Virus record (IMG/VR): IMGVR_UViG_3300024249_000184
Span: 1-62,374 of that record
Reading direction: 5' to 3' (one strand)
Length of the DNA stretch: 62,374 nucleotides
DNA from: a virus
Lineage: Duplodnaviria; Caudoviricetes
Within the stretch, counting starts at the first letter, position 1. Each line of letters starts with the position of its first letter. Below are positions 39,284 to 58,056 of the stretch, in pieces. The notes beneath the pieces were generated by a model. That model did no database searches. It was given only the letters and a program-made list of their open reading frames with translations, and had not been told where the DNA came from. The position numbers and the translations under genes were made by a program.

Positions 39284-39544
39284 ATGCAAAGTATATTGGT
39301 TTTTGGCGTAGTCAGTGCGGCAGTTTCATTACTGGTGCAATGGCTAAAGAATTTTAAATCCGACCGCCCGTCTTGGTTCAGCCAAGCGATTCTTATCGGG
39401 GTGTCTTTGGTTGGCGGGGGAGTATATCTTTATTTCCAAGCACATCAGGACTATTGGTTGCAGGTGGTCAAGGTTTTGGCTGGCGCGGACGTAATTTATT
39501 CGTTCGTGATCTCCAAATTTGAGCCGCCAAGCACGCCAGAATAA
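39284..39544 (+). CDS. putative holin
   Basis: 86 aa, 2-3 TM segments, VSLLVQWLK motif. Confidence 0.65.
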   Translation: MQSILVFGVVSAAVSLLVQWLKNFKSDRPSWFSQAILIGVSLVGGGVYLYFQAHQDYWLQVVKVLAGADVIYSFVISKFEPPSTPE

Positions 39545-39575
39545 AAGTCCATAGCGCTATTGTCTTTTCAAAATT

Positions 39576-39601
39576 GAGGCCGCTATGTCGGCCTCTTTTT
39601 T
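39576..39601 (+). terminator. intrinsic terminator
   Basis: GAGGCCG-CTATGT-CGGCCTC-TTTTTT. Confidence 0.85.
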
Positions 39602-39613
39602 GAGAGGAGGATT

Positions 39614-39757
39614 ATGGTGACGAACTTTTGCTGGAGGTTCTGTCATGCGTGCAAAAAGAAAACCCGCTGGTTAACTTTTTGCGATTTATTCTCAATGTGC
39701 GAGGAGTGCATTCGCGCCGAGACGGCTGATTTGGTAGCAGATAGAAACGAGGACTGA
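39614..39757 (+). CDS. 47-aa CxxC...CxxC zinc-binding protein
   Basis: GGAGG RBS; MVTNFCWRFCHACKKKTRW...MCEEC. Confidence 0.65.
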   Translation: MVTNFCWRFCHACKKKTRWLTFCDLFSMCEECIRAETADLVADRNED

Positions 39758-39767
39758 AAGGGGAAGT

Positions 39768-40092: not shown

Positions 40093-40180
40093 AGTGGATA
40101 ACTTGAATATAGGCCGATAAACTGGCTTAAATAGGCCTATTGCGTAATTCCCCTATATAGGGCTATAATATCTTTGAAAG
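40093..40180 (+). promoter_or_regulatory. early promoter with perfect palindrome and boxA-like motif
   Basis: AGTGGATAA 40093-40101; TTGCGT 40140-40145; CCCTATATAGGG 40151-40162; TATAAT 40164-40169; ATCTTTGAAA right after. Confidence 0.7.
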
Positions 40181-44270: not shown

Positions 44271-44317
44271 TTATCCACAACCCCTTAGTTGCTTAATAAC
44301 CCTATATAAGGCATAAT
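44271..44317 (+). promoter_or_regulatory. DnaA box plus palindrome promoter of the replication operon
   Basis: TTATCCACA 44271-44279; TTGCTT-17 bp-CATAAT; CCCTATATAAGG 44300-44311. Confidence 0.7.
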
Positions 44318-49912: not shown

Positions 49913-50267
49913 TCCGTTTCCGCCACGGGTTCGTTCCATGTATCTTTACGTCTTTGCCTGTTTTAACTGCGGGCGTTCAGATAAGGGACTAGAACTCCAT
50001 CATATTTTCGGCCGCGAAAGCCCTGCGGCTTTTAATGCTTGCCCCCTGTGCAGGGTTTGCCACGCGGCCGTTACCAACAGCAATGAGGAACGGGCGCGTT
50101 TTTTCTTTAAGAATGTGGAATTTTTGCTGGACAACCACTACGAATTACAGCCCGATGATTTGGCGGTGGTGGCCAAGCACCCATTTTTAATTGAGACCGA
50201 AGCCTACAAAAGAATCTTTGATACGAACGGCGATGTGGATAAGAACCTATTAAATTACCCAAAATAG
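49902..50267 (+). CDS. HNH-like zinc nuclease
   Basis: CFNCG...ELHHI.GR...N..PLC..CH. Confidence 0.7.
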   Translation: MLSNPFPPRVRSMYLYVFACFNCGRSDKGLELHHIFGRESPAAFNACPLCRVCHAAVTNSNEERARFFFKNVEFLLDNHYELQPDDLAVVAKHPFLIETEAYKRIFDTNGDVDKNLLNYPK

Positions 50268-50281
50268 GGGTATAATATAAT

Positions 50282-50620
50282 ATGGGTATAAATATCTCGC
50301 AGAACAAATACCACAATGTCCGAACGGAGTATAACGGCCGTTGGTTCGCCTCAAAATTAGAAGCCAGCCACGCCAGAGATTTGGATTTAATGCGCCGCGC
50401 GCAAGACCCAACTCAAAAAGTCGTGGCCGTGAACTATCAGTATCGGATACCCGTTAAAGTTAATGGGGTGTTGATTTGCCATTATGTCGCCGACTTTTAT
50501 GTAATGTTTGAGGACGGGCATAAGGAAATTCACGAAACCAAAGGCGTCAGGACAGCGGTATATTTAATTAAGAAAAGATTAGTTGAAGCAATTTACGGAG
50601 AAAAGATTTTAGAATTTTAA
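50282..50620 (+). CDS. DUF1064-like endonuclease/resolvase
   Basis: NKY.N....G..F.SK.EA...Y.ADF...E.KG..T.VY..K. Confidence 0.85.
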   Translation: MGINISQNKYHNVRTEYNGRWFASKLEASHARDLDLMRRAQDPTQKVVAVNYQYRIPVKVNGVLICHYVADFYVMFEDGHKEIHETKGVRTAVYLIKKRLVEAIYGEKILEF

Positions 50621-50694
50621 CGCGGGGTGGAGTAGGAGTCGCTCGGCGGTCTCATAATCCGCACACGCAGGTGCAAATCCTGCCCCCGCCACCA
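50621..50694 (+). tRNA. tRNA-Met(CAU), initiator-like
   Basis: Cloverleaf: CGCGGGG/CCCCGCC, GAGT/GCTC, GCGGT-CTCATAA-TCCGC, GCAGG-TGCAAAT-CCTGC, ACCA end. Confidence 0.85.
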
Positions 50695-50698
50695 AACT

Positions 50699-50935
50699 AT
50701 GGCCAATAAAGCACAAAAAGCAATAGTGTCCCTTGATCACCCTGTTCGGAGAGAAATCCGCAGGGGTTTAGTTAAACATGGCAAAGTTAAAGTAGTGGGC
50801 TTGGGTATTTTTGAAACCCGCAAGATTCCCGCACGTCGCGGTCGCAATCCGCAAACCAGCAAAATAGTTATGATTCCTAGCTATCTTAAAATCAAATTCC
50901 GTCCTACTAAGGCGTTAAAAGAAGCTGTCTGCTAA
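50699..50935 (+). CDS. HU/IHF-like DNA-binding protein
   Basis: V...GLG.F.....AR.GRNPQT.....I......KF.P.K.LKEAV. Confidence 0.9.
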   Translation: MANKAQKAIVSLDHPVRREIRRGLVKHGKVKVVGLGIFETRKIPARRGRNPQTSKIVMIPSYLKIKFRPTKALKEAVC

Positions 50936-52146
50936 TGCAACAAATTTCTTACCTCCCAACCGAACAACTTAAATTGCATCCGCAAAATCCTCGGCGTATT
51001 GACGAGAAGCAGATGCAAATTTTGTGCGACAGCATTAAAGCTAACCCCGATTATTTTGAAACCCGCCCTATCCTTTGTAATAAGGATATGGTGGTATTTG
51101 CAGGTAATATGCGTTTACTGGCCGCCCAGCGATTGGCATTAAAAGAAGTGCCTGTGGCCGTTATGGATATATCGGAAGAACGACAGAGAGAGCTGATGAT
51201 TAGGGACAACCGCTCTAACGGATTATGGGATTTTGATTTGCTTGGTAATAATTTTGATGTAGACAATTTACTTAAATGGGGCTTCAACGAGAAAGAATTA
51301 CTCGGAAGCCCTTTTGATTTTTTTCCAAATTCCGACAAGGATGAGAAAATGCCCGACATGCCCAATACCCCCCCCATTGCCCAATTAGGTGATGTGTATA
51401 TTTTAGGCAACCATAGATTGATGTGCGGCGATAGCACCAACCTAGATGATGTGCAAAAGTTAATGAACGGGCAAAGCGCCGACATGCTATTTACAGATCC
51501 GCCTTATAACATTGCTTATGAACAGCTTAATATGATGAGGGAAGGTGCTAAGGATTGGTCTAAAGAATCTGAATGGAAAGATAAAATGACTGATGAGCAG
51601 TTCCAGCAATTTTTGATAACTATATTAACGAATGCCAAAACGGTATTAAAAGAGTTTGCCCATTTCTATGTATGGTTTGCATTTAAATTTTATAAGGAAT
51701 TAGTGATAGCTTTTGATTCTAACGAAATTCATTACGACAAAGTTCCATTGATTTGGAAAAAGCAAACCGTGCCATTAAGCTGGGCGCGCTACCACAGAAA
51801 TTACGAACCCTGCTTATTCGGGGGCAAGGAAACTATCACGGCCAAGAACGGCGGTCGTTGGTTTGGTCCTAATAATGAAACCACGGTTTGGGAAATAAAT
51901 ACTGATAGCAATATTTCTTACGTTCATCCGACACAAAAGCCCACGGCACTTGCCGAACGTGCTATTAAAAATAGCAGTCAGGAAAATGAAATCATTTTAG
52001 ATTTATTTGGAGGCTCGGGATCCACATTAATCGCCTGTGAAAAAACTAAGCGTATTTCCTTTACAATGGAATTAGACCCTCACTACGTGGACGTGATTGT
52101 AAAAAGATGGGAAGAATATACCAAACAAACGGCGATAAAGGCATAA
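50935..52146 (+). CDS. ParB-like domain fused to N6/N4 DNA methyltransferase
   Basis: NPR...AGNMR; HRLMCGDST; TDPPYN; HPTQKP; DLFGGSGST. Confidence 0.92.
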   Translation: MQQISYLPTEQLKLHPQNPRRIDEKQMQILCDSIKANPDYFETRPILCNKDMVVFAGNMRLLAAQRLALKEVPVAVMDISEERQRELMIRDNRSNGLWDFDLLGNNFDVDNLLKWGFNEKELLGSPFDFFPNSDKDEKMPDMPNTPPIAQLGDVYILGNHRLMCGDSTNLDDVQKLMNGQSADMLFTDPPYNIAYEQLNMMREGAKDWSKESEWKDKMTDEQFQQFLITILTNAKTVLKEFAHFYVWFAFKFYKELVIAFDSNEIHYDKVPLIWKKQTVPLSWARYHRNYEPCLFGGKETITAKNGGRWFGPNNETTVWEINTDSNISYVHPTQKPTALAERAIKNSSQENEIILDLFGGSGSTLIACEKTKRISFTMELDPHYVDVIVKRWEEYTKQTAIKA

Positions 52147-52225
52147 GGAGTGGATAACTTTAAAAATTCCGCTTGAACTTACAAGAAAATCTTTGAGAAA
52201 ATCGGCATATTTTGGTCTATTTTGC

Positions 52226-52254
52226 TTGCGTAATTACCCTATATAGGCTATTAT
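52226..52254 (+). promoter_or_regulatory. palindrome promoter of the cassette/RNA unit
   Basis: TTGCGT-17 bp-TATTAT; CCCTATATAGGC 52237-52248. Confidence 0.7.
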
Positions 52255-52266
52255 ATATGTAGGGTA

Positions 52267-52551
52267 TGTTCTTTAACAACTTAAGCCGATTGGAAAGGGA
52301 AAATATGAACGTCAAAAAAACACAAATGAGTGTCCTAGAGGTTTATAGAATGGTTTTAGAACAAGCAGATTTTTGGAGGGAGCAGGCAAAAAAAAGTCCT
52401 GACGATAGATACACCACTTCAGAAAGGGGATTAAGAGAAGCGATGGCGGGAGAATTATATGCGGTTGCCGCCAATTTAGAAAGAACCCCCGAAGTTAATC
52501 CAACTAAGTAAACTAATTTATCGGCTTAAGTTGCTAGGGTGAAAATCCTAG
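52267..52551 (+). other. gene cassette wrapper 1 (boxA-like, 14-bp IR, GNRA hairpin)
   Basis: TGTTCTTTAACAA; CAACTTAAGCCGAT 52277-52290 / ATCGGCTTAAGTTG 52520-52533; CTAGGGT-GAAA-ATCCTAG. Confidence 0.8.
52305..52511 (+). CDS. hypothetical protein (cassette 1 cargo)
   Basis: GAAAGGG RBS then ATG 52305. Confidence 0.75.
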   Translation: MNVKKTQMSVLEVYRMVLEQADFWREQAKKSPDDRYTTSERGLREAMAGELYAVAANLERTPEVNPTK

Positions 52552-52553
52552 AT

Positions 52554-53017
52554 TGTTCCTTAACAACTTAATAAGCGGATTGGAAAGGGAAAAATGAATT
52601 TTATTGAAACCAATTTAAATCCAACAGGCAAAAGAGTTAACGATTGTGTGGTGCGAGCTATAATGAAAGCCACAAATTATACTTGGCGAACGGTTTATGC
52701 GGGACTAACGGGATTAGGCAATGATTTATATCGGTTGCCTAATGAGAAAGAAGTTTACCACCTTTATTTAAAACAACTCGGGTGGGAAAAACAACCGATG
52801 CCAAGACACGAAAATCGCAAACGCTATACCGTAATAGAATTTGCCGCAGAGAATCCTGTAGGCACATTCGTAATATCGGTTGCCAATCACTTAACGGTAT
52901 TGGTTGACGGCAATCTATATGATACATGGAATTGCAGTCGCAAGTGCTTAGGCAATTATTGGAAACGAAAATAAACTAATTTATCCGCTTATTAAGCTGT
53001 GAGGGTGCAAACCTTCA
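52554..53017 (+). other. gene cassette wrapper 2
   Basis: TGTTCCTTAACAA; CTTAATAAGCGGAT 52567-52580 / ATCCGCTTATTAAG 52983-52996; TGAGGGT-GCAA-ACCTTCA. Confidence 0.8.
52594..52974 (+). CDS. small putative papain-fold (Cys-His-Asp) protein (cassette 2 cargo)
   Basis: DCVVRAI...H...DG..YDTW. Confidence 0.65.
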   Translation: MNFIETNLNPTGKRVNDCVVRAIMKATNYTWRTVYAGLTGLGNDLYRLPNEKEVYHLYLKQLGWEKQPMPRHENRKRYTVIEFAAENPVGTFVISVANHLTVLVDGNLYDTWNCSRKCLGNYWKRK

Positions 53018-53340
53018 GAGGTGGCGAGTATTTGGCAAGATAGCTCGTGATTGCCTTTAACAGCGAGGTTATTGGTAATATTCGCCCCCTTTCCAAAATA
53101 AGGTTCGTTGATTTGTTGCTCTCTGGATAAGCTCGTAAAACCTAAGGCCGAAAGGCTATGGAGATAGCGAGATGCAGACAAAAATGCGAAGTAGCCGTTA
53201 AGGGGCGAAAGCATAGAGTTGCCTTAATCAACTCTTCCCGACGACAGGGAGCAGGGAATCAGCGAACCGCAAGGTGTATAATAATTTGGGAGTATGGTGT
53301 GCAAAATCGGTAGCCTTAAAACCATCCGACTTCCCACGTT
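53018..53340 (+). ncRNA. large structured RNA of unknown family
   Basis: Long-range helices with G-U pairs, GNRA loops, and the CCUAAG/UAUGG tetraloop receptor at 53141-53161; ends approximate. Confidence 0.75.
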
Positions 53341-53396
53341 CGGCCTGATGGCCAAAGCGTCTGGAAATAAAATGTGCCAGCTCTCACGTAAAATCT

Positions 53397-53534
53397 ATGA
53401 AGGAAATTTTTAAAGAATGGAGTTTGTATGTATTTGCTGTAGGCATTATTTTACTTGCTATCGGTATTGAGATTTTTAGATACAAAGTTTGCATGAGTTT
53501 TGCCCATAATCACCTATACTGCTTATTACATTAA
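53397..53534 (+). CDS. 45-aa membrane protein
   Basis: One TM segment. Confidence 0.5.
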   Translation: MKEIFKEWSLYVFAVGIILLAIGIEIFRYKVCMSFAHNHLYCLLH

Positions 53535-53612
53535 TCCTATTAAATTCAGTCCTCACAGAGTATAATTATATTGTAAGGTTAACCTTAATAATTAAGCGAA
53601 AGGAATCTTCCT

Positions 53613-53762
53613 ATGCCTATTGACTCTGCCGCGTTTAACGCGGAATTGCAGGCCTTGGCAGACAAATACCAAGTTCATATCACGGGAAAAGCGACACCTG
53701 TCAATCCCGATGAAGATGACTTTGATATTACTGCACAAGCGGTCACGCCTCCTGCGGCCTAA
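53613..53762 (+). CDS. 49-aa hypothetical protein
   Basis: GAAAGGA RBS; followed by a terminator. Confidence 0.65.
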   Translation: MPIDSAAFNAELQALADKYQVHITGKATPVNPDEDDFDITAQAVTPPAA

Positions 53763-53768
53763 AAGGTT

Positions 53769-53803
53769 GGGGCTGTTTAACAACAGCCCCTTTCTATTTT
53801 TTT
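53769..53803 (+). terminator. intrinsic terminator
   Basis: GGGGCTGTT-TAAC-AACAGCCCC-TTTCTATTTT. Confidence 0.8.
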
Positions 53804-53813
53804 AAATAAAATT

Positions 53814-54257
53814 ATGTTCTTATCTTATTCACAACGTGATCCCAAGTGGGCAGATACAAAAATGGGCAGTAGTAATTTAACTATTGGTCGCTATGGTTGC
53901 ACCACCACCAGCATTGCAGACCTGTCTACTTATTTTGGCGACAACTTAACCCCTTATCAAGTTTCCCAAACTATAAGTTATATTCAAGGCTTAGTTATCT
54001 GGACGACCTGTAAATTTACAAAGTTTCATTTTTTAAATCGTGAACGACTCCGAAGCGATATCAATATCAAAGCCGCATTAGATGACCCGAACAGAGCGGT
54101 AATTTTAAACGTGGCCAATGGTTCACATTGGGTAGTGGCAACGGGCTGGGATAATATCAATAAAGTTTTTAAAATCGCAGACCCGTGGATCGGGGACAGA
54201 AGCGATATGCGCCGATATAATAACAACATTACTGGCGCGGCTTATTTTGGGAGATAA
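53814..54257 (+). CDS. peptidase C39-like protein (candidate endolysin)
   Basis: YSQRD..W...GC..TS...HWVV...IADPW. Confidence 0.85.
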   Translation: MFLSYSQRDPKWADTKMGSSNLTIGRYGCTTTSIADLSTYFGDNLTPYQVSQTISYIQGLVIWTTCKFTKFHFLNRERLRSDINIKAALDDPNRAVILNVANGSHWVVATGWDNINKVFKIADPWIGDRSDMRRYNNNITGAAYFGR

Positions 54258-54425
54258 TATGGCACACGAACAACCAGAACGAATAAAAGAATTATTGGAA
54301 AAAGAAAAAAACGGCACGCTAAATGCCGCCGATTTTGAAGAGCTGAAAAGATATCGTGAAAATCCGCAAGGACACGGATAACATTATAATTAAGTGCTAT
54401 AAAATCGTTTAGAGGGCGGAGGGGT

Positions 54426-55109
54426 TTGAGGGAACGTAAACGACTGTCAGCATTTGAGGCAAAATGTATAAACTTTCTTAAAAAGCTCCTGCTGTTCTTG
54501 CTTATGAGCCTGTATTTAATAGGCTGGTTCGCGATAAGAACCGCGGCTGACGCTCCAACTCAACCACCTCAACAATTAGATTTTTTACCAGACATCTTAC
54601 AAAATGCATCAAGCACTATATGCACAAGTGGGGGAAATGACCAGCCTGCGACTGGATGCGCAAGTCCCGTTCATTTGGAAGTTCCTAAACATGCCACCAC
54701 GACAGCTAAAAGGCTACCGACTGGACATTCTACCCGTTCCGAAAAAACGGTATCAGCCGACTCTTTACAGCAATACCTCCAAAGGAATAATAGCCCTCTT
54801 GCGGACTATGCGCCGCAAATCGCTAGTTCGTCATATTCCAGTCTCATCATCGGGATCTGTGCGATTGAACAATATAATTGCACCCGCGCGCCGAACTACA
54901 ACTATTGGGGACTTATGGGCAAAACTGGATTACAGAAGTTCTCAAATATGGGACAAGGTATTCAAGCGATAGATAGTTTTTTAACCAAGGCCGAGAATAA
55001 TGGGCGAACAACCGTAGAATCTTTCCGCGGTTGGTATTGCCAATCGGCCTGCACAAATTGGGAAAGCACCGTATTGAAAGTAAAAGCTCAGGTTGAAGCA
55101 CTACCATAG
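54426..55109 (+). CDS. membrane-anchored glucosaminidase/lysozyme-like protein
   Basis: N-terminal TM; L..YL...NSPLA.YA...AIE...NYWG...Y....NW. Confidence 0.6.
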   Translation: MRERKRLSAFEAKCINFLKKLLLFLLMSLYLIGWFAIRTAADAPTQPPQQLDFLPDILQNASSTICTSGGNDQPATGCASPVHLEVPKHATTTAKRLPTGHSTRSEKTVSADSLQQYLQRNNSPLADYAPQIASSSYSSLIIGICAIEQYNCTRAPNYNYWGLMGKTGLQKFSNMGQGIQAIDSFLTKAENNGRTTVESFRGWYCQSACTNWESTVLKVKAQVEALP

Positions 55110-55164
55110 CGGCGTGGCCGCCTAACTTTATAAAACCAAAACAAACAGGGTATCTCCCAGCAAC

Positions 55165-55218
55165 AACAGGCTTTAATGGTAGCCTGTTTTTGCTTTACTC
55201 CCTATTTAGGGTTATAAT
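55165..55218 (+). promoter_or_regulatory. terminator overlapping a palindrome promoter
   Basis: AACAGGCT...AGCCTGTTTT; TTGCTT-17 bp-TATAAT; CCCTATTTAGGG 55200-55211. Confidence 0.7.
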
Positions 55219-55224
55219 ATGCCT

Positions 55225-55692
55225 ATGATTCCCGAAATAGAAAAAGAATTTTTGTTAGAAAGCAACGCCATTGAGGGCGTATTTGACCATACCAGCTTTT
55301 TACAAGCCCGCTATGCGTGGGAGTATTTAAAAAGTCAAAAGGAAATGTCCTCGCATGTTGTTTTAAAGACGCATAAAATTTTAATGCTCAAGCAACCTTT
55401 ACAGCCTGATGAAAAAGGCTATTTTAGAAAAGTGCCTGTATATATCGGCGGCCACCAAGCATTAAACCATAGCGCGGTAAAAGAGCGTATGCATATTTGG
55501 TGTCTCAATGCTTTTATCCACCCGCAATATTGGAAAGAGCATCACGTTGAATATGAAAAAATCCACCCGTTTGTTGACGGCAACGGCCGCACGGGTAGAA
55601 TGTTTATGAATTGGGAACGCTTAAAAGCTGGTCTCCCAATTTTGGTAATTAAGGCTGACGAACGCCACGAATATTATAAATGGTTTGCATAA
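55225..55692 (+). CDS. Fic-domain protein
   Basis: Canonical HPFVDGNGRTGR; N-terminal SNAIEG inhibitory-type motif. Confidence 0.93.
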   Translation: MIPEIEKEFLLESNAIEGVFDHTSFLQARYAWEYLKSQKEMSSHVVLKTHKILMLKQPLQPDEKGYFRKVPVYIGGHQALNHSAVKERMHIWCLNAFIHPQYWKEHHVEYEKIHPFVDGNGRTGRMFMNWERLKAGLPILVIKADERHEYYKWFA

Positions 55693-58008: not shown

Positions 58009-58056
58009 TTATCCACAACTCCCGCCCTTGTGGTATTACCCTATCTAAGGCATAAT
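58009..58056 (+). promoter_or_regulatory. DnaA box plus palindrome promoter
   Basis: TTATCCACA 58009-58017; TTGTGG-17 bp-CATAAT; CCCTATCTAAGG 58039-58050. Confidence 0.65.

Follow-up and report, generated by a model that had tools for sequence, protein, structure and literature searches.

A compact candidate RNA with an 11-nucleotide tetraloop receptor follows two stem-enclosed genes in a phage that likely infects Patescibacteria

Background

The window analyzed here is the whole of the IMG/VR virus record IMGVR_UViG_3300024249_000184 (62,374 nucleotides; Caudoviricetes), a phage genome of 62.4 kb that is complete or nearly complete. On the plus strand, positions 53017-53268 hold two adjacent domains, D1 and D2, which we tentatively read, with a probability of about 0.45, as a genuine, independently folding RNA of no described family that is processed from a transcript whose payloads are enclosed by long-range stems. 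The RNA is an unclassified structured element, so far confined to one phage lineage. Structure prediction indicates that D1 and D2 very probably fold into a compact RNA held by a contact between a GAAA loop and its 11-nucleotide receptor, and it is probably processed from its transcript as the third of the payloads enclosed by stems. To our knowledge, phages have so far yielded very few structured non-coding RNAs. In full-text literature searches, no such RNA, and none from Patescibacteria phages, surfaced in the result listings and the opening parts of abstracts. A preliminary description of this DNA had called the region 53018-53340 a large, ribozyme-like RNA and possibly the functional partner of the two gene cassettes that precede it.

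The phage is densely coding, with plus-strand genes occupying 93% of the window (greedy choice of plus-strand open reading frames (ORFs) of at least 45 aa). It has a portal and a large terminase of phrog_38, which has many relatives in metagenomes at 50-84% identity. Because relatives at 46-50% identity sit inside Patescibacteria (Parcubacteria-type) genome assemblies (contigs L151-L156), with two copies on one 993-kb Patescibacteria chromosome, the host likely belongs to the Patescibacteria group (candidate phyla radiation). Two terminase homologues, P0028 and P0043, are ~920 aa long, P0043 with Hint/intein-type Pfam domains. A variable part of the genome separates a ParB-N/DNA-methylase gene (50935-52146) from the terminase genes and holds the RNA region; in the relatives L128 and L142 these genes are nearly adjacent. 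The tRNA gene of this neighborhood is a tRNA-Met at 50621 (ARAGORN, Rfam), and small palindromic TTAAC-type motifs recur near the RNA region.

Results

Folding signal and domain structure

The folding signal of the region is specific to one strand. Over 52975-53400 the plus strand has a z-score of -4.20, with none of 100 shuffled sequences folding as well, against -1.47 and 9 of 100 for the minus strand, a bias that arises because 13 of the 82 predicted pairs in D1 and D2 are G-U, which the opposite strand cannot form. D2 (folded as 53100-53270) reaches -5.83 and D1 (folded as 53016-53095) -3.74, in each case with none of 200 shuffles as good, and by GC-adjusted folding energy the D2 window ranks second among 4148 windows of 171 nt on both strands. 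The minimum free energy (MFE) of D2 is -68.8 kcal/mol, and the MFE structure makes up 9% of the ensemble. A z-score from folding a single sequence is no proof of function. At the top of the GC-adjusted scan stands 39451-39710 on the plus strand, where an 86-aa ORF ends and a hairpin resembling a terminator (GAGGCCGCTATGTCGGCCTC, then a T run) is present; 39380-39760 has a z-score of -3.61.

D1 (53017-53092, plus strand) is predicted to be a long irregular hairpin of 28 pairs, 5 of them G-U. Its outer part, described previously as a hairpin at 53018-53032/53077-53091, pairs at 14 of 15 positions (two G-U, one mismatch); the inner stem proposed at 53040-53047/53064-53072 was placed roughly right, the predicted helix being 53044-53048/53063-53067 with partial pairs on its flanks. 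D2 (53102-53268, plus strand) is the core element, with 54 predicted pairs (8 G-U) and a fully nested predicted topology of a rod followed by three arms. The rod, 53102-53125/53245-53268, has 23 pairs and one G-G mismatch, closes a four-way junction and encloses a non-coding core of 120 nt. Both of its segments had been recognized beforehand, and both hold: all 12 positions pair in the long-range helix 53102-53113/53257-53268, as do all 9 in its continuation 53117-53125/53245-53253, with one G-U in each.

Two of the arms, Pc and Pe, carry the elements of the predicted tertiary contact. Pc (53132-53171) consists of a 5-bp helix, an A-rich internal loop, the 11-nt receptor, three pairs and a GAAA loop at 53150-53153. 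The canonical receptor hairpin CCTAAGGCCGAAAGGCTATGG, in which CCTAAG and TATGG flank GCC-GAAA-GGC, is present without a mismatch exactly where it had been reported (53141-53161); the receptor itself is formed by CCUAAG (53141-53146) and UAUGG (53157-53161), with three pairs above its G-U. Pe (53196-53243) is predicted to run from a 4-bp helix over an AA bulge and a 3-bp helix into a three-way junction with two hairpins, one being the short GC-GAAA-GC hairpin GCGAAAGC at 53205-53212 and the other a 7-bp hairpin at 53215-53235 with the loop CCUUAAU, whose strands AGAGTTG and CAACTCT (53215-53221/53229-53235) had likewise been noted and are found in place.

With one mismatch allowed, the receptor-hairpin pattern is expected 0.01 times by chance in the window. 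Among the matches listed from viral contigs, 91 of 115 have complementary N3/N3 segments, compared with ~5% by chance, and since the pattern thus occurs mostly in hairpin form among them, we take it as a reliable mark of real RNA. We infer that the GAAA loop of Pe (53207-53210) docks into the receptor (53141-53146/53157-53161) on the neighboring arm. In the predicted fold, loop and receptor are at similar heights, each some ten stacked layers above the four-way junction, so that the contact would clamp Pc and Pe side by side. The GAAA loop that caps Pc is three pairs away from the receptor on the same arm and so cannot reach its own socket.

Other parts of the earlier structural picture fared less well. 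The 8-bp kissing interaction between the loops CCTTTAAC and GTTAAGGG (53054-53061 with 53197-53204) is no better than chance, 388 of 2000 shuffled loops matching it, and it also competes with predicted helices. Complementary TGGGAG/TTCCCA hexamers do exist in the third domain proposed at 53287-53336, but that stretch folds no better than chance (53284-53340, z-score +0.12, 105 of 200 shuffles folding as well; 53284-53365, z-score -0.06) and is probably not part of the structured RNA. The folding signal is confined to the ~250 nt of D1 and D2, the third domain contributing nothing, and the epithet "large" is dropped accordingly. A TATAAT hexamer at 53277-53282 (plus strand), immediately behind D2, might be an internal promoter; it lacks the phage-specific upstream motif, resembles 53551-53569 (repeat D8) and counts as weak evidence. 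Because of this hexamer and the chance-level third domain, the 3' boundary of the RNA is provisional.

Absence of coding potential

The RNA region is non-coding. In agreement with its description as gene-free, it holds no plus-strand ORF longer than 51 aa, and no long frame opens under translation table 4 or with TAG read as glutamine. A 77-aa ORF on the minus strand had been named as the possible objection to a non-coding RNA, and it has no coding conservation in Pfam or in word-indexed and exhaustive homologue searches. Specifically, the 77-, 51- and 43-aa ORFs have no Pfam match at E ≤ 1, and the word-indexed search returned no homologue of the 77-aa ORF. The sole match from the exhaustive search, a 2332-aa protein, was rejected as an artefact, since it aligns in 23 weak stretches made of identical tandem repeats. 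Between 52152 and 55246, tblastx against 28 related phage loci gave no match.

A probable transcription unit with stem-enclosed genes

The RNA appears to belong to a transcription unit that starts well upstream. A promoter-like motif specific to this phage (TTGCGT, 17 nt, TATTAT) lies at 52226-52254 on the plus strand, from which we infer a start near 52260. It overlaps one of five copies in the window of the 23-nt motif TTGYGKWATTNCCCTATNTARGG (up to three mismatches) followed by an ATAAT-type -10 element, where 0.03 would be expected; the copies (1124-1146, 40140-40162, 44289-44311, 52226-52248 and 58028-58050) are all on the plus strand, and every one of them falls between ORFs. The first canonical intrinsic terminator downstream, a 9-bp G+C-rich stem followed by a T run at 53769-53790 (plus strand), is likely the end of the unit.

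Between these points, the RNA is preceded by two cassettes on the plus strand. In cassette 1, a 14-bp long-range stem (52277-52290/52520-52533; inverted repeat I1) encloses a ribosome binding site and a 68-aa ORF (52305-52511) that belongs to no family in Pfam or PHROGs and for which an Atlas search gave no lead. A terminator-like GNRA hairpin with a GAAA loop (52534-52551; z-score -4.98, none of 200 shuffles as good) closes it. Cassette 2 has a 17-position stem with one A-C mismatch (52564-52580/52983-52999; inverted repeat I2, direct repeats numbered D2-D4) around a 126-aa ORF (ORF2, 52594-52974) and is closed by a GNRA hairpin with a GCAA loop (53000-53017; z-score -3.69, 1 of 200 shuffles as good). 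The leaders (TGTTCYTTAACAACTTAA...GATTGGAAAGGGAAAA) of the two cassettes are nearly identical, as are the trailers (TAAACTAATTTATC), and the stems differ by a compensatory swap, GCCGAT/ATCGGC in cassette 1 being replaced by GCGGAT/ATCCGC in cassette 2. The cassette-2 protein matches phrog_3754, a family found at no fewer than 530 viral loci; its residues Cys18, His99 and Asp110, invariant in the 10 sequences compared, suggest a hydrolase of the papain-like kind.

The proposal that the RNA is the functional partner of these cassettes did not hold up. At 79 other viral loci with a cassette-2 homologue, the RNA is absent, as are the flanking stems and repeats, and the RNA is no more complementary to the cassette leaders than chance would have it, so that adjacency alone remains.

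Behind the RNA, a 45-aa ORF with a hydrophobic helix occupies 53397-53534. A 49-aa ORF follows at 53613-53762, with a TATAAT-type element upstream at 53561 and a strong terminator after it, whose stem-loop again contains TTTAACAAC. Further on lie likely cell-wall or peptidase genes, at 53814 (Peptidase_C39_2) and 54426.

Comparison with known RNA families

No curated family claims the RNA. Scanned with Rfam 15 at gathering score, the whole window yields only the tRNA-Met at 50621, and at E ≤ 10 the sole match in the segment 52100-53700, of 11.6 bits and without meaning, is to a human lncRNA family. As for group II introns, none of the intron models in Rfam reaches E ≤ 10, and neighboring ORFs have no reverse-transcriptase domain in Pfam or PHROGs. 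RNase P RNA and tmRNA have no cmscan match, ARAGORN again reporting only the tRNA-Met. The families ROOL, GOLLD, HEARO, OLE and raiA, whose models we take to be included in Rfam 15, are not found at gathering score in the window or at E ≤ 10 in 52100-53700. The catalytic core of a known ribozyme class is likewise not found with Rfam, and the designation "ribozyme-like" is unsupported. What stands is an RNA that bears a tertiary motif and lies outside the curated families, a conclusion strengthened by a positive control (described below for group I introns) that was detected.

Distribution

The only other copy of the RNA is on a sister phage contig (L002, the same as L160), to which it is 100% identical. 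Identity to the sister is unbroken over 52003-53872, within a shared block of 5762 bp (49924-55685) that is 99.15% identical, all 49 differences falling outside 52003-53872, and flanked by sequence of 75-86% identity. The block looks like a recent exchange or recombination tract. As the sister copy is identical within this exchange, it supports no base pair by covariation and carries no information on selection. One DNA sequencing run, possibly of the source sample, contained one identical contig and no variants.

Searches for more distant relatives were uniformly negative. The RNA has no relative in public phage records by blastn and is absent from the loci with a related terminase (28 viral ones and 6 from Patescibacteria), from loci related through the ParB-methylase gene and, as judged with the covariance model R1, built from the single sequence, from the five whole genomes that hold those six loci. 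With the same model, 151 Patescibacteria genomes gave no match. BLAST against 401 Patescibacteria genomes returned only matches of 19-29 nt in five genomes, with per-genome E values of 1.8e-4 to 5e-3 that are at chance level over 401 genomes. Exact and degenerate scans of viral contigs for the receptor hairpin returned the sister copy or nothing among the matches listed, and a motif scan of metagenomes gave, besides the sister contig, 24 loci that resemble tRNA group I introns by eye. In an nhmmer search of 260 loci (2.0 Mb), all 69 hits fell inside or just around ORF2 and none beyond 53005.

Discussion

A possible processed RNA payload

The reading that we put first, at somewhat below even odds, draws on the layout of the transcript, in which three tandem payloads are looped out of long-range stems: ORF1 from a 14-bp stem, ORF2 from a 17-position stem and the D2 core from the 23-pair rod. 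Such stem-enclosed tandem units recall the design of rRNA operons, in which the 16S and 23S rRNAs sit in processing stems, and suggest processing by a double-strand-specific RNase. The RNA would be transcribed within the one unit that starts near 52260 and ends at the terminator at 53769-53790; a host enzyme of the RNase III type would then cut the stems, releasing two mRNAs and a stable, compact RNA that may act in trans as a scaffold or decoy. The phage window does not itself encode RNase III, and all five Patescibacteria genomes with prophages bearing a related terminase do.

The D2 rod, with 23 pairs, reaches the ~20 bp of double strand expected of an RNase III processing stem, and the ORF stems, with 14 and 17 positions, are shorter. 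Since the E. coli enzyme prefers roughly two helical turns, the short ORF stems would be a point against processing. The stems of rRNA operons and of the phage T7 early transcript likewise loop tandem units out of double-stranded RNA; the present case differs in that two of the three stems have only 14 and 17 positions and that what they and the rod enclose is small, two short ORFs and one RNA.

A possible cis-acting element

Of the alternatives, we consider it unlikely, though deserving of serious attention, that the structure acts in cis within the operon, either as a 3' barrier that protects the upstream mRNAs or as a leader of riboswitch or thermometer type that controls the small membrane ORF at 53397 and the cell-wall hydrolase genes. 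The RNA does sit between ORFs of one apparent transcription unit, followed by the 45-aa ORF with its hydrophobic helix, the Peptidase_C39_2 protein and a 227-aa protein whose N-terminal part includes a hydrophobic stretch, and large riboswitch aptamers typically have architectures of the same junction-plus-receptor kind. However, no known riboswitch class in Rfam matches at E ≤ 10, and a closing rod of 23 pairs does not resemble the P1 helix of riboswitches, which is short and can switch. Moreover, 128 nt of chance-level sequence separate D2 from the next start codon, and no alternative pairing that would form a terminator or anti-terminator, or sequester a ribosome binding site, is seen next to D2. 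For 3' protection, simple hairpins would suffice.

A possible new class of assembling RNA

A bolder version of the processed-payload reading, which we think quite unlikely, would see in this element the first member of a new RNA class, compact and tertiary-folded, in Patescibacteria phages. It would be carried as a payload by a modular transcript whose units, ORFs and RNA alike, each loop out of a processing stem and are set off by GNRA hairpins, and it would use a free contact to link copies of itself or other RNAs. Because the plug on Pc is unable to reach its own socket, one contact would be left free for higher-order assembly. The comparison that suggests itself is with ROOL and GOLLD, which are also phage-borne, non-coding, multi-helix RNAs of unassigned function, and the tRNA gene near the present RNA adds to the likeness. 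They differ in being roughly 600-800 nt long and in forming a wide family, compared with ~250 nt, a single lineage and no Rfam match here. One study reports that ROOL and GOLLD form homo-oligomeric RNA-only complexes (PMC12286853).

The likeness to the packaging RNA (pRNA) of phi29-type phages lies in size and layout: a phage RNA of ~170 nt has paired ends that form a rod, a junction of several helices on top of it and loops that might pair, and D2 too is located a few kb upstream of packaging genes. However, no Rfam family matches D2 at E ≤ 10, the pRNA family presumably being among the models; this phage has a classical large terminase (phrog_38) and a portal, and the loop pairing is at chance level.

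A possible relic of a group I intron

An improbable origin is from a group I intron or other mobile RNA, of which the element would be a decaying remnant that has kept a P4-P5-like arm and lacks a present function. The pattern CCUAAG-N3-GAAA-N3-UAUGG is a signature of the group I introns of phages and tRNA genes. Indeed, those in phages and bacterial tRNA genes carry the same 21-nt hairpin in P4-P5 or P8, with the GAAA after three pairs, and likewise have an A-rich internal loop on the arm and a second GAAA hairpin ~40 nt downstream, so that the order of helix, A-rich loop and receptor hairpin on Pc resembles P4/J4-5/P5. Many of the viral pattern matches carry strings of the group I core by eye, among the matches listed, and 24 of the 25 metagenome loci with the receptor hairpin plus GCGAAAGC look like tRNA introns. 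The GNRA loop and the 11-nt receptor are, however, common to other RNA classes and insufficient for membership.

Several results argue against such descent. The group I intron model RF00028 is silent on 52100-53700 at E ≤ 10 on either strand, yet in the same permissive mode it detected four of five control loci with the same hairpin at 22.4-52.5 bits, the fifth intron being cut off by the end of its locus; the silence on D2 is thus informative. D2 differs further from group I introns in its nested topology, without a P3-P7 pseudoknot, G-binding helix or exons. Manual threading of P3' and P7', by inspection and not with a pseudoknot-aware program, gave alternatives of at most 4 bp. No interrupted gene is apparent, as ORF2 ends at the same C-terminal motif as nine homologues, and ARAGORN and Rfam find no split tRNA at the RNA region. 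Finally, the very well-defined fold of D2 (z-score -5.8, MFE frequency 0.09) is unlike a product of decay. Among 18 scanned metagenome loci with tRNA-type group I introns and the same hairpin, only 2 reach the gathering score of RF00028, other such introns scoring 22-27 bits in permissive mode, so the curated threshold misses many of them.

Other explanations

It is very improbable that the signal does not come from an RNA at all but from the DNA itself (cruciform-forming repeats, or a site for replication or packaging), from a small protein gene missed by annotation or from a fold that arose by chance. The variable location between the ParB-methylase and terminase genes, nearly adjacent in L128 and L142, the recurrence of TTAAC-type palindromes nearby and the restriction to a single lineage speak for it. 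Pairing at the DNA level is opposed by the strand asymmetry and the 13 G-U pairs, a chance fold by the perfect RNA tertiary motif (chance expectation 0.01), and a protein gene by the lack of homologues and of any sign of coding in three genetic codes. The last alternative is a ribozyme of a new kind that cleaves or splices itself and so processes the polycistronic transcript. It would share its packing device with the large ribozymes and would fit a position between coding and non-coding parts, but we regard it, too, as very improbable given that no catalytic core of a known class is found, that the sequence gives no hint of a cleavage site and that most tetraloop-receptor RNAs are not catalysts by that token alone.

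Conclusions

At ~170-250 nt, the RNA is small enough to be probed, crystallized or imaged directly, and the textbook tertiary contact that it carries lends itself to clean mutational tests. Should homologues never appear, it would be a well-folded curiosity of one phage lineage. If, on the other hand, it is indeed a stable RNA processed from a longer transcript, it would represent a new RNA family and, with it, an unusual operon design in which ORF and RNA payloads are each bracketed by stems.
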